DNA of 64,000 nucleotides from Candidatus Roizmanbacteria bacterium CG_4_9_14_0_2_um_filter_38_17 (GCA_002788855.1 PFSB01000017.1:35739-99738); one strand, 5' to 3'; positions 7,452 to 62,313 are shown, numbered from the stretch's first letter. A program made the numbers and translations. The notes: generated by a model from the letters alone, not told the origin.

Positions 7452-7479
7452 CTTTTGGTAAAATGAATATAGGTAAACT

Positions 7480-8193
7480 ATGAAACATATGAATATAGAC
7501 ATTATAACTTTATTTCCCAAGATGTTCTCTGGACCATTCGAGGAATCAATAGTACAAAGAGCTCAGGATAAGAAACTTGTTCAGATAACTATCTACGACC
7601 TGCGTAACTGGGCTTTGGATAAACGTGGAACTGTAGATGACAAGCCTTATGGAGGAGGCACGGGAATGCTCTTGCGGCCTGAACCAATATTTGATGTAGT
7701 TAAAGATATTAAGTCCAAAAGTCCGACCAGTCACTTCGTAAAAGGTCGGACCTTAAATACAAGGGTTGTGCTGTTGGATGCGGGAGGAGAATTATATAAT
7801 CAAAAAAAAGCAGCTGAATACAGCAAGTTGGATCAGCTTATTTTAATCTGTGGCCATTATGAGGGAGTAGATTATCGTGTACACGAACATCTAGCTGACG
7901 AAATAATCTCCATTGGAAATTTTGTTCTAACGGGTGGAGAAATTCCTGCAATGCTTATAGCTGACTCAGTGACTAGGCTAATACCTGGGGTTTTAGAAAA
8001 AGAAGAAGCAACTACCATTGAATCATTCTCTGATGAGATGACATTGGAATATCCTCAATATACCAGACCTGAAATATACCAAGGGCATAAGGTCCCAGAA
8101 ATATTACTATCTGGTGATCATGCAAAGATAGATAACTGGAGAAAAGAAGAGAGTATTAAGAGAACTGAAGTTAATCGTTCAGATCTGGCTTAA
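7480..8193 (+). CDS. trmD: tRNA (guanine37-N1)-methyltransferase
   Basis: TLFPKMF is present, and ICGHYEGVDYRV plus GGE match the SPOUT-fold TrmD motifs. The gene begins with the MKHM repeat motif. Confidence 0.85.
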   Translation: MKHMNIDIITLFPKMFSGPFEESIVQRAQDKKLVQITIYDLRNWALDKRGTVDDKPYGGGTGMLLRPEPIFDVVKDIKSKSPTSHFVKGRTLNTRVVLLDAGGELYNQKKAAEYSKLDQLILICGHYEGVDYRVHEHLADEIISIGNFVLTGGEIPAMLIADSVTRLIPGVLEKEEATTIESFSDEMTLEYPQYTRPEIYQGHKVPEILLSGDHAKIDNWRKEESIKRTEVNRSDLA

Positions 8194-9253
8194 TATTTAG
8201 CCTAATTGTTTGCATATCTGTGGATGCAATATCCGTAAGGTAGTGTTCGTCTGCTGTTGTAATAATTGTTTGGTATCCAGAAATAATATTTTGAATAAGT
8301 TGGCGATGCTGTTTATCTAGTTCAGAAAAGATATCATCAAGTAAAAGAACTGGTTTTTCTTGGGTTTGGTGTTCCAGATACTTAAGCTCGCCATATTTTA
8401 GCCAAAGCACCCCCATGCGTTGTTCTCCTCTACTCCCAAATTGATCAAGATTAATTTTAGACTTTTCATTATTTAAGCAGAGAATAATATCGTCGCGGTG
8501 AGGGCCTACTAAGGTGTATCCTGCGGAGAGTTCAGCTTGTTGGTATTTTAATAGACGCTCTTTACTGATAGCGCTATGGTCATAGTTAAGAATAAAATTA
8601 AATTCAGGCGTATGTTGATTGTTTAAAAAGCTAATACATTCTTCGCGAAACTTTGTAATTATTTGTCCGTGCATAATTACCAAGCTGTCCCAGTGAGTTA
8701 ACTCATCTTCACGAAGAGTATTTTCCTCTCTCATTCTGTATAGTAGTTTATTTCTTCTACGTATTGCTTTTTCATATTCCGTCAAAGCGTGGGCATATTT
8801 TCTGTCTGTTTGGATAAGCACGCTGTCTAAAAAGTTTCTGCGCCTTGCCGGGGATCCAGTTATTAGCTGAATATCCTCTGGACTAAAAACAACAGCGTTA
8901 AATTCTCCTACGAAATTACTTTTTTGCTTGCCTACTCCATTTACCAGATATCTTTTTCCTGCTGTTCGTGTTCCGTTTGTTGTTCCGTTTGTTGTTATTA
9001 TTGTCAGCTCTTGTTTTCCATTTTGATTAGTTATGAATCCTTCAATTCTCGCTAGTTCAGATTCATGTGCAATTACAGCTTTTTCTACCAGTGCTCGAAA
9101 ACTTTTGCCTGTGGCTAGTAGATAAATAGCCTCTAGGATATTTGTCTTGCCTGCAGTGTTAGGCCCCACAATTGTGGTTAATGTAGGTGAAAACTTAAAC
9201 ATATGATCGTTGTATACGCGAAAATTATGAAGCTTAATATTTTGTATGAACAT
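8171..9253 (-). CDS. recF: DNA replication/repair protein RecF
   Basis: The N-terminal Walker A is GPNTAGKTNILEA and the C-terminal motif is LLLDDIFSELD, the SMC-like ABC ATPase pattern of RecF. Confidence 0.8.
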   Translation of the reverse strand: MFIQNIKLHNFRVYNDHMFKFSPTLTTIVGPNTAGKTNILEAIYLLATGKSFRALVEKAVIAHESELARIEGFITNQNGKQELTIITTNGTTNGTRTAGKRYLVNGVGKQKSNFVGEFNAVVFSPEDIQLITGSPARRRNFLDSVLIQTDRKYAHALTEYEKAIRRRNKLLYRMREENTLREDELTHWDSLVIMHGQIITKFREECISFLNNQHTPEFNFILNYDHSAISKERLLKYQQAELSAGYTLVGPHRDDIILCLNNEKSKINLDQFGSRGEQRMGVLWLKYGELKYLEHQTQEKPVLLLDDIFSELDKQHRQLIQNIISGYQTIITTADEHYLTDIASTDMQTIRLNIKPDLND

Positions 9254-9289
9254 TAAAGGATAATAACATTAATACGAAAGCTTGGAGTA

Positions 9290-10600: not shown

Positions 10601-10800
10601 TTTTACCCATTAAAAAAGAGCCCGGAGGCCCTTAGTTTTGTGTTAATAACGTCCCATTGAGGACATTGCTTAAATTACAAACGATAATTTGATTCTGCAT
10701 AAACCTACTACCACTCCCTATGTATATATTATGTAATGTAATGGCAGAATAGCAGATTAATCCTTTCCCTGTCAACATTAGAGAATATTATACGTACAAT

Positions 10801-12353: not shown

Positions 12354-12375
12354 AGTTCGCTTAACTTGTTTTATT

Positions 12376-13305: not shown

Positions 13306-13308
13306 ATA

Positions 13309-15180: not shown

Positions 15181-15246
15181 GCAGCAATTATACTATGAAC
15201 ACATGTTCTAGAGCTTAGGCACACTTTACTGTATAATAAAGTTTAT

Positions 15247-15740: not shown

Positions 15741-15763
15741 ACCATCTTAATTCAATTTACCTC

Positions 15764-16215: not shown

Positions 16216-16224
16216 TTAAATAAC

Positions 16225-19717: not shown

Positions 19718-19789
19718 GCGCCTGTAGCTCAATGGCAGAGCACTGATCTTATAAGTCAGGGGTTCTTGGTTCGAATCCAAGCAGGCGCA
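19718..19789 (+). tRNA. tRNA with UAU anticodon (reads AUA; tRNA-Ile-UAU)
   Basis: A manual fold gives acceptor gcgcctg/caggcgc, D-stem gctc/gagc, anticodon stem ctgat/gtcag with loop cuUAUaa, and T-arm cttgg-ttcgaat-ccaag. Confidence 0.6.
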
Positions 19790-19792
19790 CCC

Positions 19793-23460: not shown

Positions 23461-24882
23461 TTAACAACCAAACTTAAATCCGCATGTGCATTCTTTGGTA
23501 AAATTACTGTTACCTTTTTCACTAGGATAGTATTTGTCACAATCAGGTTTAGGACAATGGTAATGATCGTCTTCCTTGCTTCTTCCGCAGTGACAAGTTG
23601 AGCTATCTTCATTTTCTCCAGTTAAACCAAGTCTGTTCCCTCCTATAGATTTAACTAATGTACTTCCGCCTCCATTGCATCCTGGCATTTGCTGTAGTCT
23701 TTCTAATGCGCCATAGCCTGGATCAGGCAACAGTAATAATGGTAAATAGTCGAGTCTTGGGTCAAGCATTGGGACTGCTGTATGTACTTGAGACTCAACA
23801 CTACTTCTGTATACGCTGTTTAAGTTGAACTCTGAAAGACTTAATACAGTGTGACCTAGTTTACGTGCAACATCCATAATTGATAATCCATTTATGAGTC
23901 GGGTCCTTGCTTCCGCGATGAAATTATCCACGGTTGCACGCTCAATTATCTCAAGATCTAATAATTGAGCCAGTCGGTCCAAATCATGGTGAATTGAAGC
24001 AAAACTAGCTTTCTTTCCAGCAAGAGTACCACCCATTAAGCTTTGAATTCTATCAACCACCTGATGCATTCCATTAACTCCCTCTTTTGGTGGAATCTCG
24101 ATTACAGAACCTACTATCAGTTTTATTTGATCGCGCTGATCTAACCCATTGAACCCTGGCAGATCGCATTCAAATTGCTCTAATAGCTGCCTATTTTGGT
24201 CTAACGTCATATCTGTTTGTACTGTTGCAGCTTTTATTTCACCATTGTCACCAACTTGATATACGTATGTTTGAGTGTCAAGATATGTAATATTTTTTCC
24301 TGATGCTTGTTCCTTAAGATCAGACCAACCCGGTGGACTGGAAATAAAAAAAACTGTTCTTGGTTGAGCTTTTATTAATCGCTCTGAAAGTTCTTTTACG
24401 GAGGCGTGAGCAGCTCCCCCTCTCTCTTTCTGATCAGTGATATCTTCGTAGTGAGCGTCACCATAGTCTGGACAAATTAACCCAACTTTACCATTCTCAT
24501 GTTTTGCTTGGATTTTGATTGGATATACCAGTCTCTCGGATAAGTACTCCAATCTGAATGCAGCAATATCTTCTTTAGTTACAGCTAACCATAGGTTAAC
24601 TACTTCTTCTCTGGAATTCCCCATAAGCGCACCCTTTTCCAGCATGCTTAGTAATTGCTCGGTTTGCCCTGCAACGTTAAATCCCGTTCCCGGCAGTAAC
24701 CACCAATCCCCACGCTCAATTGCTAATTCTAATTCTTGTTTTGATTTATCAATTACAGGTCCAATGACTCGGTAATCTAGGTCGTTATGAGTTTGTGGTT
24801 CTTGATTAAGTTGAAATGGTATTATTACCTCGTGTGGATAGTTAGGTATTATTCCAGATTGTACTTGTAATTCTTTTAACAT
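23461..24882 (-). CDS. Hypothetical cytoplasmic protein with a C-terminal Cys/His-rich metal-binding-like tail
   Basis: It has a canonical RBS and a 473-aa ORF. The tail is CHCGRSKEDDHYHCPKPDCDKYYPSEKGNSNFTKECTCGFKFGC. No motif I can assign. Confidence 0.4.
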   Translation of the reverse strand: MLKELQVQSGIIPNYPHEVIIPFQLNQEPQTHNDLDYRVIGPVIDKSKQELELAIERGDWWLLPGTGFNVAGQTEQLLSMLEKGALMGNSREEVVNLWLAVTKEDIAAFRLEYLSERLVYPIKIQAKHENGKVGLICPDYGDAHYEDITDQKERGGAAHASVKELSERLIKAQPRTVFFISSPPGWSDLKEQASGKNITYLDTQTYVYQVGDNGEIKAATVQTDMTLDQNRQLLEQFECDLPGFNGLDQRDQIKLIVGSVIEIPPKEGVNGMHQVVDRIQSLMGGTLAGKKASFASIHHDLDRLAQLLDLEIIERATVDNFIAEARTRLINGLSIMDVARKLGHTVLSLSEFNLNSVYRSSVESQVHTAVPMLDPRLDYLPLLLLPDPGYGALERLQQMPGCNGGGSTLVKSIGGNRLGLTGENEDSSTCHCGRSKEDDHYHCPKPDCDKYYPSEKGNSNFTKECTCGFKFGC

Positions 24883-24984
24883 ATTTTCTCCTGCTCGGGA
24901 TTATGCATAAGTGAGTTCCTGACTTTACAGTTGCGGCACAGTTGCTGACTTTCACAGCATTCCTCTTATTCTTAATGCAGTTTA

Positions 24985-25500
24985 TTAAATTTTACTATTC
25001 CAGATTCTCTCTTCTACTCCAGCTTCTTTATTAACTAAGCGGGCAAGGGCATAGAGATAGTCGGACAGACGGTTCATGTATTGTAACAGATTTTTTTGTA
25101 AAATATTAGCAGTAACAAGTCTCCGCTCAGCTCGACGGCAAATTGTTCTGGCAAAATCTAGCTGTGCAGATTTAACTGATCCACCTGGTATATAAAACTG
25201 AGTTTGCTGTGGTAGTTTTTTTTGAATCATATCTATTTCCTTTTCAATCTCACTTACTCTTTTTTCAAGCATCTTATTTCTAGCTTCTTGATACTTTTTC
25301 TCTCCAGCTAGTAGCGCACAAATATGCATTAAGTCTGATTGAATATTATTAAAGGCCTTGCCTTTAATAAAGCCGATTGCGCTGTTTAATTCATCAATCG
25401 TGCCGTAGGCTTCAACTAGTGGATCGTCTTTGGAGATTCTAGTTCCTATACGCAAGGAGGTTTCACCTTTATCCCCTGTCTTTGTGTAAAACTTCAGCAT
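24985..25500 (-). CDS. ATP:cob(I)alamin adenosyltransferase, PduO type
   Basis: It has TKTGDKGETSL and EAYGTIDELNSAIG, the PduO N-terminal domain signature. It overlaps the upstream RNR gene end. Confidence 0.75.
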   Translation of the reverse strand: MLKFYTKTGDKGETSLRIGTRISKDDPLVEAYGTIDELNSAIGFIKGKAFNNIQSDLMHICALLAGEKKYQEARNKMLEKRVSEIEKEIDMIQKKLPQQTQFYIPGGSVKSAQLDFARTICRRAERRLVTANILQKNLLQYMNRLSDYLYALARLVNKEAGVEERIWNSKI

Positions 25501-28500
25501 TCAGAGTAGCCACAGCTGTAGCACTTTTTACAGCCTTCCTCGTGAGCAAGAGATGCATCCCCACAGTCGGGGCAGATATCTAGATGTGTGGTAGGTTGCA
25601 TCATTAGTTGAGCAGGTAATGTGACTATCTTTTCCTCTTTTACTTCTTTATCTGTATTAAAGCTATTTCCGTTTAATTTTGCGTGTCCGTTGGTCGTTGA
25701 ATTCGTGTGATTCATTATTTTATATGTGCCGTTTGTAGCTGTTACATTAAAATGTGCTCCGAGTACTTTGGCTAAAGCATCTGGCAGGCTTAAAACCTTC
25801 TCTTTGCCAAAACCTGTACTAGATCTTCCACCGATACCACCAAGTTGATACAACACGCTGCGAACGCGTTCTTCCCCGCTAACTGGTGCATTTATTCTGA
25901 ACACGAGTGAAATAAGTCTTCCCATTGCTTCTGCCATTGCGGAAATGTCTGTCCCTCCTTTGCCAATATTTATAAAGACTTCTGATGGTTCCCCTCCTGG
26001 ATCTGTATTGACAGTAATAAAACTTTTACCAACGGGGGTCTGCATTTTATATGTTGCCCCTTGCAATACAAGTGGTCTCCTGGTAATGGTTGGCATATCT
26101 TTTGGTAGCTCTCCATTTGTTTGCTGGCCTGCCACGTTTTCGCCAGATGGCGACTTTACGTGGTCAGTTTCTCGCTCTAACACACCTGGGCGTGACCCTT
26201 CTCTCATAAAGGTTACACCTTTACAACCAAGGTCATAAGCCATAGTATAGAGTTCTTTGACGTCTTCAACCGTAAAGTCTGCTGGGGCATTGACTGTTTT
26301 GGATATGGAGGCGTCAACATATTTCTGAATTGCAGCTTGAACTCGTACATGATTCTGTGGGGTTAAATCTGCCGCAGAGACAAAGTAATCTGGTCGCTCA
26401 TCATCAGGATGATCTTTTCTCCAGGCGTCATACAGTGGGTGAAAAATCTTGTGTTCTCCTAGTCTGTCACGACGAGTGAAGGAGAACTCAAATACTGGTT
26501 CAATTCCAGAAGATACCCCGGCCATTAGCGAAGTAGATCCGGTTGGTGCTTGCATAAGGATAACTGAGTTTCGTACTCCGTGCTTGCTAATCTTTTTTCG
26601 AATTCGCTCAGGAAGTTGCTTAATAAAATATGCATTGAGATATTTGTTGCGTTGAAATTTAGGGAAAGCACCTTTTTCTTTTGCTAGCTCGGCTGACTGA
26701 TCGTATGCAGCGTCACGAATCAGTTTATAAATTTTATCAATTACCTCTAATCCTTTTTCTGATCCATAGCGTATCTTCATTTTTATTAATGCATCTGCCA
26801 AGCCCATGGTGCCTATTCCAATTCGGCGTTCACCTTCAAGTTGAGTCTTTCTGATACCTTCAAATATGTAGACATCCCCATCAATAACATTGTCTTGAAA
26901 ACGCACCGCTACTTTTACGTGGTCTGCTAAAAGATCGTAATCAAAATTACCACTATCGTTTACAAAAGTAGCTAGGTTTAGCGACCCTAAATTACAAACC
27001 CCCCAAGGTGGTAATCCTTCCTCACCACAGTTTGAGATGATCATGCCATTGGCAGAAAATCTATGAATCTTATCTACGGTGATATCAAAGACGTCTTCTT
27101 GGCCATCTGAGACAAGCTCAGTAAACGTAGCGATGAAAGTTTCTGTATATGGACCTCGTTTGCCGTAACTTTCTAGAAGCGTCTCTAGCTTATCTTGTTT
27201 GTATTTGTGTAAGAAATTTATCTCTTTAGCAAAGCGAGTTAGATTGTCTTTGCTGATAACTAGATCGTGATATGCTTGACATTGATTAGGTAAACTATGA
27301 AACAATTGTTTGTATCCACCATGATCGTCTGGGAGAGCTCTTTCCCCAGCTTTTCGCCGGTTAGCATAGATTTTGCTTGCAATACCAAAATTAAGTAGCA
27401 AAAGTTGTGTGTCTTGCAATAATTCGTAACTTATAGATGTTAGCCTAACGCTTATTCCTTTTTTAGATGTGCCTGCCACATGTCCATCGGCAGAAAAGAG
27501 AGCTTGAATAAAGCCTTTTTGCATGGCTTTAGACCCGCTCAATACAGCTACTGGGACCTTGTATTTGTTCTCCGGAGTTAGTCCATACCGACCAGCTAGT
27601 CTCCATAGCCTGGTTGACTCGACAACTGCTTTGTCTTCACTGTCTATGTATTGCGGAGCAATGGGATATGAACGAGCAACCACTTGTTCACCATCAACCA
27701 TTTTGTGAACATAAATAGCAAACTGTGGGGCTAATTCTTGTTTTTCGCTACCGTAAAAATATAAGGTAGCGTTACCATTTTTCTTGAGTGAACCGTCCCC
27801 CACTAACCAGCCCAAAACTCGTCCTTGTTCTAGTGATCCTTGTGTGCCAAATGCTCCGTAGCTTGAAAGTTTAATCTTATCTCCTTGCTGTAGCTTGCCT
27901 GCTTCTACCTTGCCCGTGGTAGTAAACACCTTATGATCTTTTGTTAGCCGTAGTTCGTATCCTTCTTTAGTTTTTAGTCGATAAACAGATTTTGTGCCGG
28001 TCTTAAAGAAACTAGTTGCACGATAGCTTTCACCATCAACTACTGCTTTGACTGGTTCTCCAGATAGATAAAGCTCGCCAACGGTTTTAATTCCGTCTGA
28101 AGTTGTAACTTTGGTATCTGCTGTGACACAAGGATTAACACAGTTAATGCGGTTGAAGTAATAATTATTGTGCCACTTGTTATATCTTTCCATAAATACT
28201 ACTCCGGGCTCAGCAGAGTTCCAAGCGGCTTCACAGATTTGATCCCATAAATCACGAGCGCGAACTGTACTATGGACATTGACTTTTCCTCCTATATCTA
28301 ACCAATCCTGCATATATCCATCCCATTCTTTGTCATATTTGGGGTCGTCGATGTCTGGATAAATAAAATTCCAGTCATCGTCATTTTTCACAGCTTCCAT
28401 AAACTTGTCAGAGACACAAACTGAAAGATTTGCTCCCCGAATACGCGTTAGATCTCTCTTTACATTGATAAATTCCTGTACGTCAGGGTGCCAATCCCAA

Positions 28501-29006
28501 AGCATAATCATCAAAGCGCCTCTTCTGGTTCCACCTTGTTGAATAATGTCATGAGTAGCAACTGAATAAAGCTCAGCCCAGTTTACTGGTCCTGAAGAGT
28601 AGCCATTGACCTTGCTCACACGTGCACCACGAGGCCTGAGACTAGAAAGATTTACCCCTACCCCGCCACCGTGCGCCATAATCTCAACCATGTGTCCTAG
28701 GTTTTCTAAGATACCGTTTCGGGAATCTGGTGGATTGGGAATAACGTAACAATTGTAGTAAGTCACATCGTAGCCGGTTCCTGCGCCTGCTAAAACTCTG
28801 CCACCTGGCACATACCTAAAGTCCTGCATTACTCGATTGAACTCGTCCTCCCAATGCTTACGATTGCTAGGTTTTTCCTCTTTAGCTATGCCGCGAGCTA
28901 CGCGAGCCCACATCTGTTTAGGATCTTTTTCGATAGGATCTCCTGCCTTATTTTTTAGGGCGTACCTATCTTTGAATACTTTTTCGCTTACTCCTTCTAG
29001 TTTCAT
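25494..29006 (-). CDS. nrdJ: Class II adenosylcobalamin-dependent ribonucleotide reductase (NrdJ) interrupted by an intein
   Basis: The exteins reconstitute ...RINCVNP|CGEEGLPPWGVCNLGS, the class II NPCGE active site. The total is 1170 aa versus about 800 expected without the 367-aa insert. Confidence 0.85.
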   Translation of the reverse strand: MKLEGVSEKVFKDRYALKNKAGDPIEKDPKQMWARVARGIAKEEKPSNRKHWEDEFNRVMQDFRYVPGGRVLAGAGTGYDVTYYNCYVIPNPPDSRNGILENLGHMVEIMAHGGGVGVNLSSLRPRGARVSKVNGYSSGPVNWAELYSVATHDIIQQGGTRRGALMIMLWDWHPDVQEFINVKRDLTRIRGANLSVCVSDKFMEAVKNDDDWNFIYPDIDDPKYDKEWDGYMQDWLDIGGKVNVHSTVRARDLWDQICEAAWNSAEPGVVFMERYNKWHNNYYFNRINCVNPCVTADTKVTTSDGIKTVGELYLSGEPVKAVVDGESYRATSFFKTGTKSVYRLKTKEGYELRLTKDHKVFTTTGKVEAGKLQQGDKIKLSSYGAFGTQGSLEQGRVLGWLVGDGSLKKNGNATLYFYGSEKQELAPQFAIYVHKMVDGEQVVARSYPIAPQYIDSEDKAVVESTRLWRLAGRYGLTPENKYKVPVAVLSGSKAMQKGFIQALFSADGHVAGTSKKGISVRLTSISYELLQDTQLLLLNFGIASKIYANRRKAGERALPDDHGGYKQLFHSLPNQCQAYHDLVISKDNLTRFAKEINFLHKYKQDKLETLLESYGKRGPYTETFIATFTELVSDGQEDVFDITVDKIHRFSANGMIISNCGEEGLPPWGVCNLGSLNLATFVNDSGNFDYDLLADHVKVAVRFQDNVIDGDVYIFEGIRKTQLEGERRIGIGTMGLADALIKMKIRYGSEKGLEVIDKIYKLIRDAAYDQSAELAKEKGAFPKFQRNKYLNAYFIKQLPERIRKKISKHGVRNSVILMQAPTGSTSLMAGVSSGIEPVFEFSFTRRDRLGEHKIFHPLYDAWRKDHPDDERPDYFVSAADLTPQNHVRVQAAIQKYVDASISKTVNAPADFTVEDVKELYTMAYDLGCKGVTFMREGSRPGVLERETDHVKSPSGENVAGQQTNGELPKDMPTITRRPLVLQGATYKMQTPVGKSFITVNTDPGGEPSEVFINIGKGGTDISAMAEAMGRLISLVFRINAPVSGEERVRSVLYQLGGIGGRSSTGFGKEKVLSLPDALAKVLGAHFNVTATNGTYKIMNHTNSTTNGHAKLNGNSFNTDKEVKEEKIVTLPAQLMMQPTTHLDICPDCGDASLAHEEGCKKCYSCGYSEC
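27030..28130 (-). mobile_element. Intein with LAGLIDADG homing-endonuclease domain, inserted at the RNR catalytic cysteine
   Basis: It is NrdJ residues 293-659. It starts at Cys (CVTADTKV), ends ...GMIISN, and is followed by extein Cys. The two LAGLIDADG-type blocks are LGWLVGDGSL and FIQALFSADGHV. Confidence 0.8.
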
Positions 29007-33970: not shown

Positions 33971-34038
33971 ATTATAGAGTCGACCCCTATAATAGCCCGT
34001 AAACTGGGGCTTATTGTAAGGCTAAGCCTTACTTGGGA

Positions 34039-36204: not shown

Positions 36205-36239
36205 ACCTTATAAAAACGGTTGGGTAAACTAGGTAAACT

Positions 36240-37748
36240 ATGAGACACATGAAACACCTATGCTATGATAACATAAGCATGGCTGATAACGAACAAAAAG
36301 ACCCACAGGGTCCATTGAAATCTAAGCAGACTGATCCACTAGATCCGTTGGAGAGTGCGTATGAAAGCGATGTATTTCATGGAGACCCAATCATGGATGA
36401 TGAGTATATCGAGCCAGAACTCCCCCCACCACCACCTGCCTCAATTTTTCAGCGCATCTTAAAAGCAATTCCCTTCTTAATTGGAATAATTATTCTACTC
36501 CTACTGGGGTATTTGGCCTACAACTACTTTTTAGAACGTAATGGCAAGGGTGGACCAGCAGACTTAAACTATTGGACGCTGTGGGAAGACGATAGTGTTT
36601 ACCAGCCTCTGATTGAGGAGTACCAGCAGCAGCATTTGGGAGTTACAGTCACATTGCAGAAACAATCAGTTATTCAATATCGTGAGCGACTACAAACACA
36701 TATTGCCCGTGGGGAAGGACCAGACATCTTTCGCTTTCATAATACCTGGACTCCGATGCTCCAAGACGAGCTATCAGCTATGCCAAATAGCGTGATGACA
36801 CGAGCTGAATTTAAAGAAGCTTATTACCCTGTAATAGTAGAAGATCTCTCTGTTGGAGAAACAACTGTAGGCCTCCCATTAATGTTCGATGGATTAGTGG
36901 TTTTTTATAACAAAGATATTTTACAGGCAGCTGGTTTTAGTGCTCCTTCTGGCGACTGGAATGAGTTTTTACTACAAGCAGAGAACATGACAGTTAAACA
37001 AGGTAATAAGATTGTGACGGCGGGAGCTGCCCTTGGCCGAGCAGACAATATTGAACATTTTTCAGATATACTCGGGCTATTAATGTTGCAAAATGGTGCC
37101 AATCCTGCTCGTCCTAATACCGACGCTGGCGCGGGTGGGCTGGTGTTTTATCGTATATTCGCCCAGACCCCAGATAACGTTTGGAGTTTGGAATTTGATA
37201 ATGATATTCTTGCTTTTGCAGGAGGGAAGGTTGCCATGATTTTTGCGCCTTCTTGGGAAGCTTTCACTATTGCTGCTATAAATCCAGATCTGAATTTCTC
37301 CACTTCTCCTGTACCCCAGGTTGCTGGCTCCGAAAGCCAAGTTGCCTGGGCTAGTTATTGGGCTGAGGGAGTGAATGCAAAAAGTCCCAACCAACAACAA
37401 GCTTGGGAGTTCCTAAAGTTTATGGCACAAAAAGAGTCACTGGAAAAATTCTATAAGCTAACCGCGGAAACCAGGGTCTTATTTGGAGAGCCGTATCCAA
37501 GACGCGACCTCGTAGAAACACTAGGACAAAATGACTACTTAGCGCCATTGGCTCAACAGGGTGAGTTTGCCCAGAGTTTTTACATGGCATCGCGCACGTA
37601 TGATAATGGAATTAATGATGGGATTATTCAGTACTATAAAAATGCAGTTAATAGTTTAGATTCTGGTAATAGCCCCCAAGAAGCTTTGGAAACTGCCGCA
37701 CAAGGAATCACCCAGGTCTTAGAGAGATTTAATGTGGTAATTGAGTAA
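36240..37748 (+). CDS. Membrane-anchored extracellular solute-binding protein (ABC sugar-type SBP family 1-like)
   Basis: It has a long acidic/proline-rich cytoplasmic tail, one TM helix, and a periplasmic-binding-protein-like domain. No permease gene is adjacent. It begins with the MKHM-type repeat (MRHMKH). Confidence 0.45.
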   Translation: MRHMKHLCYDNISMADNEQKDPQGPLKSKQTDPLDPLESAYESDVFHGDPIMDDEYIEPELPPPPPASIFQRILKAIPFLIGIIILLLLGYLAYNYFLERNGKGGPADLNYWTLWEDDSVYQPLIEEYQQQHLGVTVTLQKQSVIQYRERLQTHIARGEGPDIFRFHNTWTPMLQDELSAMPNSVMTRAEFKEAYYPVIVEDLSVGETTVGLPLMFDGLVVFYNKDILQAAGFSAPSGDWNEFLLQAENMTVKQGNKIVTAGAALGRADNIEHFSDILGLLMLQNGANPARPNTDAGAGGLVFYRIFAQTPDNVWSLEFDNDILAFAGGKVAMIFAPSWEAFTIAAINPDLNFSTSPVPQVAGSESQVAWASYWAEGVNAKSPNQQQAWEFLKFMAQKESLEKFYKLTAETRVLFGEPYPRRDLVETLGQNDYLAPLAQQGEFAQSFYMASRTYDNGINDGIIQYYKNAVNSLDSGNSPQEALETAAQGITQVLERFNVVIE

Positions 37749-39449: not shown

Positions 39450-39517
39450 GTTCTACACTTATACCACAAAAGCTTATGCCAGTGGGGAAACCATGAAACA
39501 TGTGATAATATTGAGTT

Positions 39518-40450: not shown

Positions 40451-40522
40451 GCTATTGACAAATAGTCACTCTCTATTTAGAATAAGCAATTACTAGGCAA
40501 GAGTGCTAAAAATGGGTAAACC

Positions 40523-40831
40523 ATGAAACATATGACAAACAACACAAAAATACAGCCTCTTTTAGACAACGTCTTAATTGAGCCAGCAGAAGAAGAAACA
40601 AAATCTCCTGGTGGAATATACTTACCCGAAAATGCCAAAGAAAAACCAACTATTGGTGAGGTTTTAGCGGTCGGACCTGGAAAATTAGACGAGAACGGCA
40701 AAATTATTAAACTGTCTGTAAAAGTAGGAGACAAGGTGTATTACAAGAAATGGGGAGGAAACGAAATTAAGATTGCAGGTGTTGAGCTATTACTAGTTGA
40801 AGAGAAGGATGTTCTCGCTATTATAAAATAA
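40523..40831 (+). CDS. groES: Co-chaperonin GroES
   Basis: The translation has IQPLLDNVLIEP...GGIYLPENAKEKP...GEVLAVGPG. It is N-terminally extended by MKHMTNN from the repeat motif. Confidence 0.9.
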   Translation: MKHMTNNTKIQPLLDNVLIEPAEEETKSPGGIYLPENAKEKPTIGEVLAVGPGKLDENGKIIKLSVKVGDKVYYKKWGGNEIKIAGVELLLVEEKDVLAIIK

Positions 40832-42524: not shown

Positions 42525-43106
42525 ATGAGACTAGTTTTGCAAAGAGTTAAACGCGCTTCTGTTAAGGTTCAAAATAAAGCTACTATTAAAATCGATCGTG
42601 GCTATCTAATCTATGTTGCTGTTGGCCAAGAAGACACTGTGAATGACGTAACTATCTTAGTCGATAAACTTGGTAAACTGCGATTCTTTCCACAGAAAGA
42701 TAAGGTTCGGGTAAACCATGAAACACATGACTTTCAAAAATCTATAATAGATATTAAAGGGAGTATCCTAGTAATACCTAACTACACTTTGTACGGTGAT
42801 CTCAATGACGGTAATCGTCCATACTTTGGACAGGCTGCTGAGCAAGAGATGGCGGCAAAATTGTATAAGCAGCTCTTAAAACAGCTGAAGAAAACGTGTG
42901 GTACGACTGTAACTGTTAAAACAGGTATGTTTGGAGAGTTTATGGAAGTGTCCGCCACCAATGATGGGCCGGCAACCTTAGTTCTTGAGCCAGACTTAAT
43001 TGGCCAAATGGAAAGGGAATTAGAAATAGAAGAAACGGATGATAATTATGCTGAAAATTTTGATGACATGCTCGACAAACTTGGCGTAGACCTAGACAAC
43101 ATATAA
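42525..43106 (+). CDS. dtd: D-aminoacyl-tRNA deacylase with acidic C-terminal extension
   Basis: It has MRLVLQRVKRASV and SATNDGPATLVL motifs. It contains an in-frame copy of the repeat motif at 42709-42731. Confidence 0.8.
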   Translation: MRLVLQRVKRASVKVQNKATIKIDRGYLIYVAVGQEDTVNDVTILVDKLGKLRFFPQKDKVRVNHETHDFQKSIIDIKGSILVIPNYTLYGDLNDGNRPYFGQAAEQEMAAKLYKQLLKQLKKTCGTTVTVKTGMFGEFMEVSATNDGPATLVLEPDLIGQMERELEIEETDDNYAENFDDMLDKLGVDLDNI

Positions 43107-46683: not shown

Positions 46684-47115
46684 GGGGATGTGTTGATTTG
46701 ACAGGATGAGTACTTTAACAACTTGCAAGCCGAGCTGATTAACTCGCTAAACTTATCAAAAAATCTAATTGCAGAGGATAAAACCCTTGCAGCTTTGAAG
46801 TCCCGTTTGCGCGGGATGGAAGAGGCCTTAATGGCAAAGCGCTTCGCAGCTCGCGCTGCTTTTGCTTACGCTTAAAGGCTGTTTATAGGTCTTTCACTCG
46901 ATGAAGATTTATAGGCACAAACAAAGTCGAGGCGTCAGATAAAGAATCTAGCCTGATCTTTATCGGAGAAATAAGGCAATCCTTAATGATAAGGATAGGT
47001 AAACTATCTTCGATTTGTTAGTTTAATGTCATTAAGTATCAAACTAACTAAGCTTGTGAATGAAGTTGTTTTGCTCGCTTTCTGGACGAGGGGTCACCCC
47101 CCTCCATCTCCACCA
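46684..47115 (+). ncRNA. ssrA: tmRNA (ssrA), about 432 nt, standard (non-permuted) form
   Basis: The 5' end GGGGAUGUGUUGAUUUGACAGG matches the tmRNA 5' consensus. The 3' end has T-arm gaggg-gtcaccc-ccctc, acceptor catctcc, and ACCA. The acceptor pairing 5' ggggatg with 3' catctcc gives a G3:U wobble, the alanine identity pair. An in-frame Ala-rich tag ORF ends ...AARAAFAYA-stop at 46873-46875. The position directly after smpB is canonical. Confidence 0.6.
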
Positions 47116-47859: not shown

Positions 47860-47885
47860 CTTCGAGAACCCGCTTCTCGAAGTTG

Positions 47886-49664
47886 TTATTCAAGTTGAAA
47901 AGAGTAGATTGTGTCTTTGGATAATAGATACACAGTATTGGCTGATTCTGAGACGGTAAAATCTAGTATATTATCTAGCTCTTTCCAGCTATACTGCGCT
48001 TTATATAATCCGTCTTCTCCTAGTGTTATTATTCTGTTGCCATCTAAAAGATATAAATTGTCTAGTTCAGGAGTTTTAACCAATTTCATGTTACTCCCAA
48101 GTTTTTGCTCTAAACCTCGAATATAATAAGAATCACGCCGACCTCCAATAAATTTTAGAATCTGAGAGCCAGAAGGTGAACCCGAAACAACCCAAATCGC
48201 CCCATCAATAGCAAATGTTTGTGGTTCCAATATTTTATAATCACCCAATAAATATGATTTTTTAGAAGAAAAGGTATCCCCAGCAGAAAGATATTTCCAG
48301 ATAGACCCATCGCTGCTTAATAGATACATATTCCCACCAAAGTATTTTAGATCAACAGCTTCTCCCCACTCTTCATCCTTTTCAATAATAGTTTGATCAT
48401 TAATTCCAACTATATTTACACCCTTGTCTGTGAGCATATATAAGCTAGAATTAGCTCCGGTAAGGTTGCTTGCTTTTATGAGCCAACTCCCACCGGCAAC
48501 AACTTCGCTTTTCTTTGTCTGTGCATCCAACTTTGCTACAAGCTGGTTCTTAGAGCTATATAAATACAAATTTGAACCTATTAGGTCTAGTTCATCAGCA
48601 CTGAGATTATCACGCAAAAGTGAGAGCTCAAAAAAAAGCTTGGGCTCTACTTGGTATGTTGCGGTTGCGGCTACTTGGGCATCTTTTAATTTTTGAAGCA
48701 GCTCTTCAACTTGCTTGTATTCAGAATCATTTTTATCTATTTTAAGTAGAAGCTCAGTTAACACTTGTTCTCCTTGGCCCAGAACACTGCGAGCGCGAAT
48801 GCGATTTAATTCAATCAGAGCTGTTCCCTCCTCTAACTTATGCTCGGCCATTGCAATAGATGTTGAAACTTGATCTTGAGAAACGCTTGGCGTGCTTATC
48901 CAACGGACTAATAGAAAAATTGTGGCAGCGATGATAACAAACGCCATGGTTTTAATGGGATAACGACTAATTAAACGCTTTGCGCGGCGCAACTGACGTG
49001 TGAAATTAGTGATCCTATGAATATTTCTGGTTATCCCTGGCAAAACAGCTGCAAGCTTCATTCTTGGTAGTTTAATTTTTATTGGCTGGTCTGCCTTTGC
49101 AATACCTGTGATCTGTAGCAATAACCCTACAGCTTCAAGCTTAGTTTTGTTTTTATTCTGAACTAGCTGTATTTCGTCAATAAGTTCGTCTATACTATCA
49201 ATATCTACGAGCTGCCTAATAAAATTAGCTTTGCCCATAGACTCGAGTCCAGGGGTATCAATGAGAGCCAGTCTGTCTCCATCTTGAAGCTTGCCTTGTG
49301 TCTGCCCACTTTTATCCAGCAACTCTATGGCTTGACCATTGCGAATTAAAAGAACTGTGGCGTTTGATGTATGCACAGTTACCGAATTAGTGTCAATAGA
49401 TACGTGTAGCGCGCCTATTGTCTCGATCTGATCTTGAAATGAAGCTAATAGTTTGTCTATTAATTGTTTGCGAGTGCCATTATTAAACTGCAAGTAACCG
49501 TTAATGGATAAACCATGAAACATCTGATTTATTAACAAGTGCCGACCTTCGGAGCTGGGAGCTGATTTGAGTTTGAGAATAACACCATAGTTATGCTGAA
49601 AATACGCTTGTGACCACACCTGGTGGCCACATATTAATGAGGCAGAGTGAAGCTTGAGGCTCAT
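47886..49664 (-). CDS. Hypothetical bitopic membrane protein (cytoplasmic N-domain, one TM, repeat-rich extracytoplasmic domain)
   Basis: It has an ORF only, with a TM helix near residue 240. It contains the repeat motif on the opposite strand at 49506-49527. Confidence 0.3.
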   Translation of the reverse strand: MSLKLHSASLICGHQVWSQAYFQHNYGVILKLKSAPSSEGRHLLINQMFHGLSINGYLQFNNGTRKQLIDKLLASFQDQIETIGALHVSIDTNSVTVHTSNATVLLIRNGQAIELLDKSGQTQGKLQDGDRLALIDTPGLESMGKANFIRQLVDIDSIDELIDEIQLVQNKNKTKLEAVGLLLQITGIAKADQPIKIKLPRMKLAAVLPGITRNIHRITNFTRQLRRAKRLISRYPIKTMAFVIIAATIFLLVRWISTPSVSQDQVSTSIAMAEHKLEEGTALIELNRIRARSVLGQGEQVLTELLLKIDKNDSEYKQVEELLQKLKDAQVAATATYQVEPKLFFELSLLRDNLSADELDLIGSNLYLYSSKNQLVAKLDAQTKKSEVVAGGSWLIKASNLTGANSSLYMLTDKGVNIVGINDQTIIEKDEEWGEAVDLKYFGGNMYLLSSDGSIWKYLSAGDTFSSKKSYLLGDYKILEPQTFAIDGAIWVVSGSPSGSQILKFIGGRRDSYYIRGLEQKLGSNMKLVKTPELDNLYLLDGNRIITLGEDGLYKAQYSWKELDNILDFTVSESANTVYLLSKDTIYSFQLE

Positions 49665-54323: not shown

Positions 54324-54378
54324 TGGCAAATATTGGCAAATATTGGCAATTGGTGTTATAATTTAGATTGGGTAAACC

Positions 54379-54660
54379 ATGAAACATATGAGAACAGTAA
54401 ATATTTCACTACCAGAAAATTTAGCTCAGCGAATTGAAGTTTTGTTAGCACAAAAAGAGTTTGTTTCTCGCTCAGAAGTGGTACGGACAGCGTTAAGAGT
54501 ATTTTTTACGCTGGAGCAAAGAGTGGATCCAGTTGAATTAGTTCCGTTTACAAAAAAACCACTAATAGATATTAAATCTGAACTTAAAGAAGCAGGTCAT
54601 GATTCTGTTTTTGTGGATAGTGTGATAAAGGGCTTAAAGGAATCGTCTGTATATAAGTAA
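54379..54660 (+). CDS. Ribbon-helix-helix (CopG/Arc-like) DNA-binding protein
   Basis: It has VNISLPENLAQRIEVLL...SRSEVVRTALRVFF, a beta-strand followed by two helices as in RHH folds. It starts with the MKHM repeat. Confidence 0.5.
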   Translation: MKHMRTVNISLPENLAQRIEVLLAQKEFVSRSEVVRTALRVFFTLEQRVDPVELVPFTKKPLIDIKSELKEAGHDSVFVDSVIKGLKESSVYK

Positions 54661-56175: not shown

Positions 56176-56221
56176 TGATTATAACCGTTAATAAGTTGAC
56201 AAAAGATAACAGAAACGAGAC

Positions 56222-56327
56222 AAGGCGAGGCTTTTCACTTTAGTGGATAGCCTTGCCTTAAGCGAGTGATTGTCTTATCCGCTTAACTTAAAGGCAAGAC
56301 CTTCCATTTCATGTAGGGTCTTGCCTT
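56222..56327. repeat. Two tandem hairpins of the AAGGCAAGACC family downstream of pilin-like paralog 2 (third partial copy of the hicBA-flanking element core)
   Basis: At 56222-56259 the stem is aaggcgaggct/agccttgcctt. At 56291-56327 the stem is aaggcaagacc/ggtcttgcctt, followed by the same gtctcg tail as copies A and B. Confidence 0.6.
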
Positions 56328-56533
56328 GTCTCGCTTGTTGAATTGTGAACAGTTACTAATCTAGGGTTTGGCAGGTAGTTGATTGTGTATTATGATTACA
56401 TCATGAGAAATACTAAACAAAAACGCATGAAAGCAATAAAGATAAAAAAGCCGTTGAAACATGGCTTAAAGAAACAAGAGACGAGTGGCCGGATAGGTGG
56501 AAATCCAATGAAAGATATTGATATAATTTCATT

Positions 56534-58829: not shown

Positions 58830-59758
58830 ACAACTATTTTTTCAATGCGTACTCCTTCTGTTCCTAGATTGGCTTTCATAATTTCAAGGCCATATTTTTT
58901 AATACTCTGTTTAAGCTTGTTAAGATTTTTATGATATACAGGTAATACCCCTGATTTATCCTTAAATCCTCCCCCTCCGCTAATCTTTGCTACTCCTCCG
59001 CTTTTTTCTATACTGCGAATAATCGAAGCGGTAGAGTTGCTGACCATACCGGCTTTTTCCAGAAGTCTTCCGTTTTCTTTTATTCCCTTCATTAGTGACA
59101 GCTCGTCCTCGTCGTGAATGGCTTGGGTTATCTGTTTAGTAACTATTTCAAAATCATCCACCGAATTTGGTTTGAATTTTTCAACCATTTCTTTAGTTGA
59201 TTCTTTGGGCTTACCAGTATTGATAAGATAAAAATGCTGGAGCGAATTGGCTACTTTAAACTGAAACTTAAAGAGGGATTTTAAGAATTCAAATTCTTTC
59301 CTGTACCAGACAAATCCCCCAAATGTAACTGTTGATGTGTCAACTCCCGAGGGGTTGCCGTGCTGGAACTTGTCTACCTTGTAGGCTAGCTCGTTTATTA
59401 ATCTGTGGTCAAGTTTAGAATTTCCGGAAGTGGCTACTAAAAATGCAGTTACAATTCCTACACCAAGAGCAGCGGATGACCCCATGCAGGCACCACGTGG
59501 GATATCACTTATGATTTCAAGATTGAAATTCGTGGGAAACTTTGCGCCAAGATAGTTTTGCATTATCTCAACAGCCTTTTTTACTAGCTTCCCCTTAGTC
59601 ATGGCATATCGAGAACCCGCTTCTCGAAGTTCAGGATATGTGGTTAGGGTTACAGTTAGACGCTTGTCCACTGCGGCTGCAAGAGCTGGCTTACCATAAA
59701 CAACCGCATGCTCCCCTGTTATTATTATTTTCCCCGGTACACTGATTACTACTTTCAC
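58826..59758 (-). CDS. mvk: Mevalonate kinase
   Basis: It has SVPGKIIITGEHAVVYG and a GHMP ATP motif (GMGSSAALGV). Confidence 0.7.
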   Translation of the reverse strand: MKVVISVPGKIIITGEHAVVYGKPALAAAVDKRLTVTLTTYPELREAGSRYAMTKGKLVKKAVEIMQNYLGAKFPTNFNLEIISDIPRGACMGSSAALGVGIVTAFLVATSGNSKLDHRLINELAYKVDKFQHGNPSGVDTSTVTFGGFVWYRKEFEFLKSLFKFQFKVANSLQHFYLINTGKPKESTKEMVEKFKPNSVDDFEIVTKQITQAIHDEDELSLMKGIKENGRLLEKAGMVSNSTASIIRSIEKSGGVAKISGGGGFKDKSGVLPVYHKNLNKLKQSIKKYGLEIMKANLGTEGVRIEKIVV

Positions 59759-60054: not shown

Positions 60055-60061
60055 ATTATTT

Positions 60062-60099
60062 AAGGCAAGGCCTTTAATTTTTATTAAAGGCCTTGCCTT
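60062..60099. repeat. Perfect 15-bp-stem hairpin (AAGGCAAGGCCTTTA / TAAAGGCCTTGCCTT), a member of the AAGGCAAG(A/G)CC palindrome family
   Basis: It sits in the 19-nt gap between the thiolase and DUF35 genes inside the mevalonate operon. Confidence 0.6.
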
Positions 60100-61231
60100 T
60101 ATTAGTTAAGATGTGAATTACTGCAGTTCCTCCTGATCCTCCAATATTGTGAGTTAATCCTAATTTAGCCTCTCCTTTGACCTGCCTTTTACCGGCCGAG
60201 CCCCTAAGTTGCTCAACTATTTCCACAACCTGCTTTACGCCAGTTGCTCCAACTGGGTGGCCAGCGGCTTTTAATCCTCCCGATGTGTTTACTATTAGCC
60301 CCTTACTTCCTAGCTTAAATTGTCCTTTTTCCAGCCTTGGACCCGCTTCTCCTTTTTTAACAAATCCAATATCTTCAAGAGCTAATATTTCAGCTATCGT
60401 GAAGCAGTCGTGAAGCTCGGCAACGTTTATTTCTTGTGGATCAATATTTGCACTGGCAAATGCTTTTTGAGAAGCAAGTTTTGTTGCTTTGATTTCAGTA
60501 ATAGACTCTCTTCCTGCTAACCCGGTGCTATCTGTGGCAACTTGTGAAGCAAGGATTTTTACTTGTTGATTTTTTGCTGTAAGAATTACAGCACTCGCTC
60601 CATCTGTGATCGGCGAGCAATCGTATAGTTTAAGTGGGTCGGCAATACATGTGCTGTTTAGCACATCTTGTTTAGTTAGTGTAAATGGATATTGGGCTTT
60701 GCAGTTTAAGCTGGCGTGAAAGTGATTTTTAACTGCAACTAGCGCAAGTTGGCTTTCTGTTGTGCCATACTTTTGCATATGCGCTCTTGCCATTAACGCA
60801 TAAAGAGCTGGAAATGTTAATCCAGCAATACGCTCGTCTTCACTAGCTGCCTGCATTAAGCCCGCGGCGACTTCTTCGGGTGCATAGTCAGTCATTTTTT
60901 CGATACCTAAAGCTAGTACGGTTTGATATGAACCGCTTTTTACCGCCTGACAAGCTTGGTGTACGGCAATACCACCGGAAGCACAGGCTGCTTCAACTTT
61001 AATCGCTGGAATGTTTAAACCAAGTTCTCCAGAGATGGCGGCTCCTAGCTGTTCTTGATCACCAAAATTACCAGAAAGCATGTTTCCAACATAAATAGCA
61101 TCGAGGTTCTTTATTTCAAGGTTAGCGTCCTCAAGTGCGCCATAAATAGCTTCTTTCATTAAAGAAGCAAATCCCTGACTCCAGAGTTCTCCAAATTTTG
61201 TTGTATATACTCCTGCAATGCCTATTGTCAT
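60074..61231 (-). CDS. Archaeal-type acetoacetyl-CoA thiolase (SCP-x / thiolase-like)
   Basis: It has the thiolase fold with an active-site Cys region (VEAACASGG) and C-terminal GHP and GG motifs. Confidence 0.7.
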   Translation of the reverse strand: MTIGIAGVYTTKFGELWSQGFASLMKEAIYGALEDANLEIKNLDAIYVGNMLSGNFGDQEQLGAAISGELGLNIPAIKVEAACASGGIAVHQACQAVKSGSYQTVLALGIEKMTDYAPEEVAAGLMQAASEDERIAGLTFPALYALMARAHMQKYGTTESQLALVAVKNHFHASLNCKAQYPFTLTKQDVLNSTCIADPLKLYDCSPITDGASAVILTAKNQQVKILASQVATDSTGLAGRESITEIKATKLASQKAFASANIDPQEINVAELHDCFTIAEILALEDIGFVKKGEAGPRLEKGQFKLGSKGLIVNTSGGLKAAGHPVGATGVKQVVEIVEQLRGSAGKRQVKGEAKLGLTHNIGGSGGTAVIHILTNKGKAFNKN

Positions 61232-62313
61232 ATTATGCCTGTCATTTTTAAATACTGGATATAGTTTATGTACTCTTTGTCTTTAATCTGTGTGGATACA
61301 GAATTATTTTTAGGTAAACTATGAAACAGTAGTTTTCGGTATTCTACTATCTCCTTTGTTACTTCAAAACTAAAAGCATCAGACCCCGCTCCTGAGCCGT
61401 ATGAAACAACAAAAATTCGTTCTCCTGGCTTTGCTACGTCCAACACTGCTGCAAATCCTATAAGGGTTGAGGCAGAATATGGATTGCCTATTTGATTAAT
61501 AATTAAACTTGGCTCAAGTTGTGAGCTTGAAAATCCTAGTTCTTTTGCTACTTGTCTTGGAAACTTGCCATTTGGCATATGAAAAACACAGTATTTATAG
61601 TCTGTTGGTTCTGTTTTGCTTATCTTTAATAGTTGAGTTGCTGCCTCTTTGACGTGTCTTAGATACGCAGGCTTGCCGGTAAATCTACCGCCATGAGAAG
61701 GATATTTAATTCCATCTCTGCGCCAGAAGTCTGGGGTATCGGAAGAATAAGAAGTCATACAGATAAGCTTGGCAATTACTTTTTCGCTTCCTAGAATATA
61801 GGCTACTGCAGCCGAACCGGCTGTATACTCTAGCGCATCGTGCGGTCTGCTCTGTGCTTTATCCGATCCGATAACTAATGCCTGATGATATCTTCCTGAC
61901 TCAATAAGTCCGAGGCTGGCCTGCATACCTGCTGTAGCTGCTTTGCAGGCGAATTCCAGATCTGCCGCAAGATAATTATTTGATAAGCCAAGGGTGTCTC
62001 CCACAATTGTAGATGTGGGATTTACTGCGTATGGATGAGATTCTGATCCAACAAAAACTATGTCAATACTTCCAACTTGCTTAAGACTTAACCTTTCACT
62101 TCGTAAAGGGTTAAGTCTTGCAATTGCAAGCTGGGCTGCTTCTACTGCCAGAGTTACCGAGTCTTCGTCGATACCCGCTACTGCCTTTTCGTTTATTCCC
62201 AGTGAAGTGATCACATCATTGGGATTTTTACCCCAGACACTACAGATTTCCTCTACCTTTATTCGGTAGCGTGGAATGTATGATCCATAACTAATAATTC
62301 CTGCTTGTTTCAT
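61228..62313 (-). CDS. Archaeal-type HMG-CoA synthase
   Basis: It has GIISYGSYIPRYRI, the N-terminal signature of archaeal-type HMGS. Its stop overlaps the thiolase start. Confidence 0.75.
   Translation of the reverse strand: MKQAGIISYGSYIPRYRIKVEEICSVWGKNPNDVITSLGINEKAVAGIDEDSVTLAVEAAQLAIARLNPLRSERLSLKQVGSIDIVFVGSESHPYAVNPTSTIVGDTLGLSNNYLAADLEFACKAATAGMQASLGLIESGRYHQALVIGSDKAQSRPHDALEYTAGSAAVAYILGSEKVIAKLICMTSYSSDTPDFWRRDGIKYPSHGGRFTGKPAYLRHVKEAATQLLKISKTEPTDYKYCVFHMPNGKFPRQVAKELGFSSSQLEPSLIINQIGNPYSASTLIGFAAVLDVAKPGERIFVVSYGSGAGSDAFSFEVTKEIVEYRKLLFHSLPKNNSVSTQIKDKEYINYIQYLKMTGII

Follow-up and report, generated by a model that had tools for sequence, protein, structure and literature searches.

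Mobile DNA is usually thought to need hundreds of bases, together with terminal repeats, hairpins and target duplications. Among much smaller repeats, the small dispersed repeats SDR1-8 of Nostoc punctiforme and its relatives, reportedly described by Elhai et al. in 2008, are said to be 21–27 nucleotides (nt) long, with a conserved predicted hairpin in SDR4-6; we know of no enzyme that mobilises them, a question that for these cyanobacterial repeats dates from 2008. Here, we analyse an 18-nt unit that recurs in a 64,000-nt stretch of the genome of Candidatus Roizmanbacteria bacterium CG_4_9_14_0_2_um_filter_38_17 (GCA_002788855.1, PFSB01000017.1:35739-99738), a member of the Candidate Phyla Radiation (CPR). 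This whole stretch is called the window below, and positions are counted from its first letter. The Nostocaceae repeats are given as ∼20 bp long and possibly mobile (PMC2884548, PMC4390886), SDR5 inserting precisely between nucleotides 3 and 4 of HIP1 (PMC4390886). Judged by description, they would be the closest precedent for the 18-nt unit. Both kinds of repeat are very short and occur dispersed as well as in tandem (12 copies of the unit in the window, arrays of two or three in relatives); for both, mobility has been inferred from presence/absence, insertion is precise at a short target (NNTG/YATGA in the case of the unit), and copies may be nested. The unit differs in being slightly below the 21–27 nt range, in its hosts, which are CPR bacteria with ∼1-Mb genomes rather than cyanobacteria, and in that two of its three subtypes are unstructured instead of hairpin-forming. 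Unlike the SDRs, it also carries a Shine-Dalgarno (SD) sequence, an ATG and stop codons, accumulates at start codons, and is documented as six-codon inserts in conserved enzymes and in a tmRNA gene.

The motif is most probably a family of 18-bp non-autonomous mobile units of Roizmanbacteria and close relatives. It ranks among the smallest mobile DNA elements seen so far, and is a smaller, functionally distinctive new variant among the poorly understood very small mobile repeats: lacking terminal repeats, hairpins or duplications, a block of just 18 nt has found its way again and again into genes that are essential, into a structural RNA and into start codons. Literature searches turned up no account of repeats of this kind in CPR bacteria. 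Rickettsia palindromic elements, which are 100–150 bp long and palindromic, also lie in frame in protein genes and in RNA genes, where they are tolerated as an extra peptide, but the present unit has only 18 bp and adds exactly six residues. Miniature inverted-repeat transposable elements were rejected as a classification, since the unit has neither terminal inverted repeats nor, in five clean events, a target-site duplication. Repetitive extragenic palindromes (REPs) and REPINs resemble it in being short (20–40 nt in their case), highly repeated, non-coding and presumably mobilised in trans (PMC3116915, PMC3733652); REPs, however, are palindromic and extragenic and have a GTAG/CGTC head, whereas the unit has no palindrome and no such head and is found in genes and at gene starts. 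With at least 6 of the 12 window copies inside genes, membership of that family was also discarded, and neither the 64-kb window nor the adjoining 10 kb yielded a gene for a REP-associated tyrosine transposase (RAYT, Y1 HUH).

Orthologous sites, copies and subtypes

Eight filled/empty comparisons were made with relatives (loci given below by L numbers): two in dtd, two in the gene for HMG-CoA synthase (HMGS), and one each in the intein of a class II ribonucleotide reductase (RNR), a YfiH-like gene, the start of an aldehyde dehydrogenase gene and the tmRNA gene. At these eight orthologous sites the insertions are a clean 18 nt (six codons), found in either orientation, and none of the five clean events shows a target-site duplication; new copies are thus shown to arise as exact 18-bp insertions that leave no duplication. 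In dtd, the window and L131 (84% identity) carry CGGGTAAACCATGAAACA, encoding RVNHET, ahead of a conserved CAT GAC; in protein and DNA alignments the insert is missing from L132, L129 and L127, as it is from every other homologue, even that of Desulfosporosinus. At a second site 160 nt upstream, L131, L232 and L238 have a further unit in the opposite orientation and the window is empty. The C-terminal part of the HMGS gene contains an antisense unit (LFHSLP) in the window and L274 but not in L272 and L273; since the empty sites read AAAAYTAC followed directly by AAAATAAT, both boundaries are unambiguous and a duplication is excluded. At the N-terminus of the same enzyme, L272 has a third-subtype unit (VEDSLP) that is missing from the window and L273. 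A 6-aa insert in the RNR intein of the window is missing from nine homologous inteins; the YfiH-like gene bears an antisense unit in L228 at a site empty in the window; and in L132 and L233 a unit lies one base 5′ of the aldehyde dehydrogenase ATG, where the window, L131 and L129 read TTGACT-N17-TATGAT-N6-ATG. The tmRNA gene of the window contains a third-subtype unit that the L228 tmRNA gene does not; compared with the Rfam model, it lies within an inserted segment, and the same 18-mer is inserted elsewhere in relatives. Altogether, units have landed in protein genes, the tmRNA gene, a phage-like contig and an existing unit, and arrays show that single sites have been hit repeatedly.

A preliminary description of the window, made from the sequence alone, had suggested either a miniature insertion or a very frequently used operator. 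The absence of exactly 18 nt from relatives at the Dtd, HMGS and RNR-intein sites, and the reverse case of units in relatives at sites empty in the window, bear out the former; the operator reading is not supported.

The excess of copies was assessed against 100 dinucleotide-preserving shuffles of the window. A 22-mer with up to three mismatches matched six times, against 0.00 expected. The 16-nt core GGTAAACYATGAAACA, again with up to three mismatches, gave 11 matches on the + strand and only two poor ones (three mismatches each) on the − strand, and k-mers of the motif form the most repeated 11–14-mer family of the window. The window contains 12 copies, ∼1 per 5 kb, all on the + strand (two-sided binomial ∼5e-4, computed post hoc):

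1676–1711, + strand: T-subtype unit TAGGTAAACTATGA/AACA, antisense in the N-terminal (signal/transmembrane) region of a GH5 cellulase gene (188–1744, −)
1690–1707: not a copy of the unit but a different 18-nt insert with a hairpin, TCCCGCTAAGCGGGATGA, which splits the GH5 unit inside its ATGA
7470–7487, + strand: T-subtype unit TAGGTAAACTATGAAACA, one base 5′ of the native trmD ATG (7489)
27287–27304, + strand: T-subtype unit, antisense and in frame in the LAGLIDADG intein of the class II RNR gene (25494–29006, −); QLFHSL
36221–36256, + strand: nested pair, an outer C-subtype unit (36221–36229 plus 36248–36256) holding an inner T-subtype unit (36230–36247, one mismatch)
39483–39500, + strand: C-subtype unit TGGGGAAAC... 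(one mismatch), in a divergent intergenic region
40513–40530, + strand: C-subtype unit, one base 5′ of the native groES ATG (40532); its own ATG at 40523 gives MKHM
42708–42725, + strand: unit CGGGTAAACCATGAAACA, in frame in dtd and in sense orientation; adds RVNHET ahead of the native HD
46996–47013, + strand: third-subtype unit TAGGTAAACTATCTTCGA, inside the tmRNA gene (46684–47115)
49505–49522, + strand: C-subtype unit with one mismatch, in antisense orientation close to the 5′ end of a 592-aa gene (47886–49664, −) and in frame with it
54369–54386, + strand: C-subtype unit, one base 5′ of the native ATG (54388) of an RHH gene; TATAAT 6 nt upstream
61311–61328, + strand: T-subtype unit, in antisense orientation close to the 3′ end of the HMGS gene (61228–62313, −) and in frame with it; LFHSLP

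The repeated motif is therefore confirmed as real, and is stronger than first described. All eight sites originally listed are present where they had been placed; the copies at 27287–27304 and 1676–1711 had been overlooked. The length of 20–23 nt given at first has to be corrected to a discrete 18 nt, the YATGA after the unit being its target site; what had been taken for a tandem duplication at 36222 is the nested pair, and the supposed half-site in the tmRNA is a full unit of the third subtype. Occurrence on both strands is right as regards the host genes, which have both orientations, but not as regards the copies. No unit was found in the 10 kb past the left end of the window.

The trmD copy, whose own ATG at 7480 adds MKH and which has a −10-like TAAAAT 5 nt upstream, is identical at the orthologous site of L211 (81% identity). 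The trmD start (7462–7496) also has AGGTAAACTATGAAACAT between two direct copies of an 8-nt sequence, ATGAATAT, an arrangement kept in L211 that reflects either a rare target duplication or chance in an AT-rich leaderless promoter. In the nested pair, at the start of a solute-binding-protein gene with a −10-like TATAAA 6 nt upstream, the inner unit sits exactly before the internal CATGA of the outer one. The unit at 39483 has a 3′ flank, TGTGATAAT, that supplies the gene at 39518 with an extended −10-like box, and the L238 orthologue of this copy is perfect. The insert TCCCGCTAAGCGGGATGA has a 6-bp stem with a TAA loop; its boundary is ambiguous by 4 nt, the alternative being 14 nt plus a duplication of ATGA, and no second copy was found in ∼480 kb of related sequence.

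A metagenome scan yielded 59 loci, most of them with 35–42% G+C and several syntenic with the window at 75–88% identity, which together with the window give 66 unique copies. The consensus is T(C)-R-GGTAAAC-Y-ATGAAACA, also written Y-RGGTAAAC-YATGAAACA, with two linked subtypes, TAGG..T.. and TGGG..C..: positions 2 and 10 covary (A/T in 31 copies, G/C in 29, A/C in 5, G/T in 0), and position 1 is T in 61/65. The third subtype, TAGGTAAACTATCTTCGA, has only the first 12 nt in common with the other two and no ATG; its length, dispersal and flank (the NNTG rule) are the same, and it forms a tandem pair in L262. Because perfect head-to-tail arrays occur (three units in L224; two in L219, L220, L240/245/256 and L253/262), the length is fixed at exactly 18 nt; some arrays in relatives combine different subtypes. 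The ends, TRGGT... and ...AAACA, form no inverted repeat. Solo half-units occur only at chance frequency, and no 5′-truncated copies were found. A candidate for a decayed unit, CCAGTAAAGTATGAAACA with three mismatches, may be present at 35177–35194, antisense in a VanW-domain gene.

Orthologous units are better kept than their flanks (71/72 versus 217/240 nt), which fits a function at start sites or homogenisation. Since 36 kb from relatives at 54–69% Dtd identity contained no copies, the family is lineage-restricted. When the 16-mer GGTAAACYATGAAACA was compared with 185,579 species genomes, there were single chance matches in unrelated taxa, and no relative among the matches listed (at least 120 loci). 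A scan of IMG/VR with a 17-mer returned mostly generic GGAGGTAAAC-ATG-AAA gene starts, L130 alone having a bona fide unit.

Target site and start codons

The flanks of 11 window copies, which had been found without reference to them, were tallied against a background of 20% G. On the 3′ side, a pyrimidine occupies +1 in 9/11, T is at +3 and G at +4 in 10/11 each, and A is at +5 in 8/11; the 5′ flank has no consensus. Insertion thus takes place immediately 5′ of an asymmetric N-N-T-G, most often YATGA. The HMGS and Dtd-B (upstream dtd site) insertions lie before GTAG and ACAG, so that the true requirement is no more than N-N-(T)-G. The preferred YATGA also occurs inside the unit, which explains the nested copy, and repeated use of one good site explains the arrays of mixed subtype. 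Three other origins for this arrangement were considered and dropped. The internal YATGA does not covary with the flanking one, which together with the five clean events speaks against a target-site duplication; an excised circle integrating at a YATGA core would give circularly permuted inserts, of which none was seen; and replication slippage or template switching on R/R′ homology would give inserts of 9 nt, not 18 nt.

In about 24 of the 66 unique copies, a single base separates the unit from the ATG of a long open reading frame (ORF) downstream, and five of the window copies are at gene starts. In copies inside genes, the antisense orientation prevails (∼11, versus ∼5 sense), and the TAGG type is never sense in an ORF. 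Read in the sense direction, the unit has TAA-ACY-ATG in frame B and a TGA in frame C, and frame A is open only if it begins with TGG or CGG, the TAGG subtype beginning with TAG; there are therefore sense stops in two frames, or three for the TAGG subtype, while all three antisense frames are open. Judging from these frames and from copy positions, selection would decide which copies survive. Since stops are met in the sense but not in the antisense direction, units inside genes would persist mainly antisense, adding six residues to loops or termini that tolerate them. A unit arriving just before a YATGA that contains a start codon would do no harm: such a copy would provide an SD-like RGGT with a new ATG 5 nt downstream of it, plus stops for upstream frames. 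The new ATG lies 9 nt upstream of the native start and always in frame with it (ATG AAA CAY ATG, giving MKHM). The pile-up at start codons is attributed to the YATGA target plus selection. The preliminary description had correctly read the MKH as an extension upstream of the original ATG: GroES from a more distant relative (54% Dtd identity), whose groES has no unit, lacks MKH, and the second ATG is the native start. Its reference to an SD-less leader was mistaken, as the unit has AGGT or GGGT 5 nt before its own ATG.

Most start-type copies have a −10-like hexamer 5–7 nt upstream of the unit. In the window, 24/66 genes show a TANNNT peak 6–9 nt before the ATG (e.g. TATAAT-N7-ATG in dtd). With a −10 box so close upstream, many target genes look leaderless, and TANNNT in about a third of the window genes suggests widespread leaderless mRNAs beside SD-led genes in operons. 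In promoter-proximal genes of this apparently leaderless kind, the unit would create an 18-nt leader bearing an SD sequence, and the translation of leaderless genes in CPR bacteria may thereby be altered. A few copies lie instead between an existing SD sequence and the ATG (L243, L239). Annotation is affected as well: start codons are mis-set, gene callers disagreeing on groES (99 versus 102 aa), the solute-binding protein and the 592-aa gene, and six-residue inserts in conserved enzymes could pass for lineage-specific protein features.

Mycobacterial interspersed repetitive units are 46–101 bp long, intercistronic only and co-oriented with operons, and to our knowledge no insertion of one in a coding sequence has been described. 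As with these elements, the stop and start codons of the 18-nt unit may overlap those of the flanking genes, keeping translational coupling. In L130 the TGA of the unit, which overlaps its ATG, ends the upstream ORF, and the ATGA coupling overlap is thus preserved. L130 (IMG/VR 3300008255_001602) is a phage-like contig of 38.8% G+C with a major head protein and DNA methyltransferases, and its perfect unit sits at a gene junction; L130 and L218 may belong to a Roizmanbacteria phage or prophage.

Routes of movement and rival explanations

The features that bear on mechanism are the precise ends, the lack of a duplication, the one-sided, short and asymmetric target, the constant length of 18 nt together with a conserved 5′ 12-mer, the repeated hits at the same site and, in the window, the uniform orientation. 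By analogy, they would most resemble HUH-type transposition of single strands, as in IS200/IS605. Elements of that family and palindrome-associated transposable elements share with the unit precise ends, the lack of a duplication, and insertion beside a fixed 4–5-nt target on one strand; read on the bottom strand, the unit inserts 3′ of TCATR, or at least of C-A-N-N, in 10/11 window copies; its orientation is uniform over the 64 kb of the window and mixed in relatives. A trans-acting strand-transfer enzyme would recognise the conserved 5′ part TAGGTAAACTAT and the fixed length of 18 nt, and the unit would move as single-stranded DNA by cut- or copy-and-paste, comparable to the ‘peel and paste’ of IS200/IS605. 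We propose this route only tentatively; an RNA-templated route, the main alternative, seems rather unlikely, and the remaining probability falls to some other route.

Several observations weigh against mobility, or against movement as single-stranded DNA. IS200/IS605 elements are at least 100 nt long and have subterminal hairpins bound by TnpA, whereas the unit has 18 nt, no such hairpins and no tnpA nearby, which speaks against its belonging to that family. At −1 to 0 kcal/mol, the folding energies of its ATG-bearing subtypes do not surpass those of shuffled sequences, and these subtypes have no stable hairpin, in contrast to the ends that IS200/IS605 or RAYT enzymes recognise (in the third subtype, judged by eye only, a 5-bp stem AGGTA/TATCT is possible). 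Neither the window (Pfam annotation) nor the next 10 kb contains a reverse transcriptase, transposase or HUH protein. A mechanism tied to the replicating strand would fit the window, where every copy has + orientation, but orientation is mixed in relatives, also in the region syntenic with the window. Neighbouring copies in relatives have the same orientation in 4 cases and opposite ones in 16, even within a few hundred bases, which speaks against a replichore-wide orientation as a general rule. No presence/absence polymorphism was seen among near-identical strains, which gives no sign of present-day activity. In HMGS, the L274 gene is a mosaic: over the 600 nt upstream of the unit it matches L273 at 98–99%, and then, starting ∼35 nt ahead of the unit, it matches the window at 98%. 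This is homologous recombination of a unit-bearing tract and not a new insertion (precise excision was dropped in its favour), and it shows exchange between lineages ∼12% apart in which units also travel passively. Finally, the translational role of the start-site copies is read from sequence only.

In a retro-copying scheme, the ATG-bearing units would be 18-nt mRNA 5′ leaders copied by a reverse transcriptase: priming at a nicked DNA 3′ end that pairs, by microhomology, with the YAUGA(A) directly following the leader, run-off at the RNA 5′ end giving a sharp 5′ boundary, and joining of the cDNA to the target. Start-type units do begin 5–7 nt after −10-like boxes, about where transcription would be expected to start; in typical donor genes the unit is followed by the very YATGA that makes up the target; the unit resembles a generic translation-initiation region, as the matches in IMG/VR illustrate; and repeated addition would account for arrays. 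We nevertheless consider this scheme unlikely, given that a reverse transcriptase is missing from the window, that 5′-truncated copies, variable target duplications and an excess of solo halves are all lacking, that a pyrimidine at position 1 is unusual for a transcription start, and that the third subtype, without an ATG and not leader-like, keeps to the same length and target rule. An immobile translation-initiation or regulatory signal that evolved in place, with the copies inside genes being chance occurrences or relics, could appeal to the five window copies at gene starts, to the SD-like tetramer and ATG within the unit and to the conservation of orthologous copies, yet it is highly improbable and is already contradicted by the indel comparisons: clean 18-nt differences in Dtd, HMGS, the intein, the YfiH-like gene and tmRNA, in both orientations. 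Arrays and the nested copy also tell against it, and no − strand gene of the window has a unit at its start, though most genes are on that strand.

That all 12 window copies are on one strand, and that one unit moved between lineages in a homologous-recombination tract, might point to a strand-polar chromosomal signal (FtsK-orienting or Chi-like) or a DNA-uptake sequence, CPR bacteria being thought dependent on DNA uptake. Such signals, however, come from point substitution and not as discrete 18-nt blocks, whereas all the copies tested are 18-nt indels that change the length at orthologous sites; both orientations occur within a few hundred bases in relatives, the density is ∼1 per 5 kb, and neither nesting nor arrays of two or three identical units would be expected, which leaves this explanation very unlikely. 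The CATATG and CCATG in the motif are familiar from cloning sites, but an adapter, vector or assembly chimera is scarcely credible: for this population, the same 100-kb contig with identical copies is present in independent assemblies from ENA, JGI, NCBI (GCA_009992065.1) and Logan, species no more than 81–88% identical share orthologous copies, and copies lie in frame inside genes.

Returning to the mobile unit, it is conceivable, if doubtful, that it represents the smallest self-contained mobile DNA documented so far, that an enzyme of a kind new to transposition reads ∼12 nt and measures 18 nt on single-stranded DNA or an RNA copy, and that units act as portable translation-initiation cassettes, turning leaderless into SD-led genes across a CPR lineage. 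If so, genomes of ∼1 Mb would offer a tractable system for how very small mobile repeats move, and comparing unit-bearing with unit-free genomes of this small size could reveal the enzyme.

Other features of the window

The window has 39% G+C and a typical set of CPR housekeeping genes (groESL, dtd, smpB-tmRNA, trmD), together with the class II RNR gene and its LAGLIDADG intein, an archaeal-type mevalonate operon, toxin-antitoxin pairs and type-IV-secretion-like genes; the sole recombinase is XerC/D-like. The encoded Dtd protein is identical to an NCBI entry for Candidatus Roizmanbacteria. The tmRNA gene (432 nt, 101 bits by Rfam) is missed by ARAGORN, probably owing to insertions in the gene. 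A tRNA-Ile with anticodon UAU is at 19718–19791. The intein-containing RNR gene is followed by a cobalamin adenosyltransferase gene (24985–25500, −), just downstream of which an AdoCbl-II riboswitch (24904–24979) precedes a gene without known function (23461–24882, −).

Other repeats were also noted. A hairpin-like motif, GAGAACCCGCTTCTC, is present at 47864–47878, 59611–59625 and 63068–63082 (partially at 60341), always on the + strand; it encodes REAGS in frame in HMG-CoA reductase and GHMP kinase and has seven distinct contexts in relatives. It was rejected as an insertion, there being no length change relative to PDB 6hr7. A ∼90-nt repeat with a long hairpin (AAGGCAAGACC...GGTCTTGCCTT) at 5490–5580, 6155–6245 and 56270–56340 adjoins HicAB toxin-antitoxin modules, and in strain L269 the HicAB module is duplicated in tandem. 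L257 has a ∼690-bp cassette between positions equal to 34030 and 34038 of the window, which lacks it (33992–34112 region); close to either end of the region rearranged in L257 there are 18-nt units in inverted orientation.

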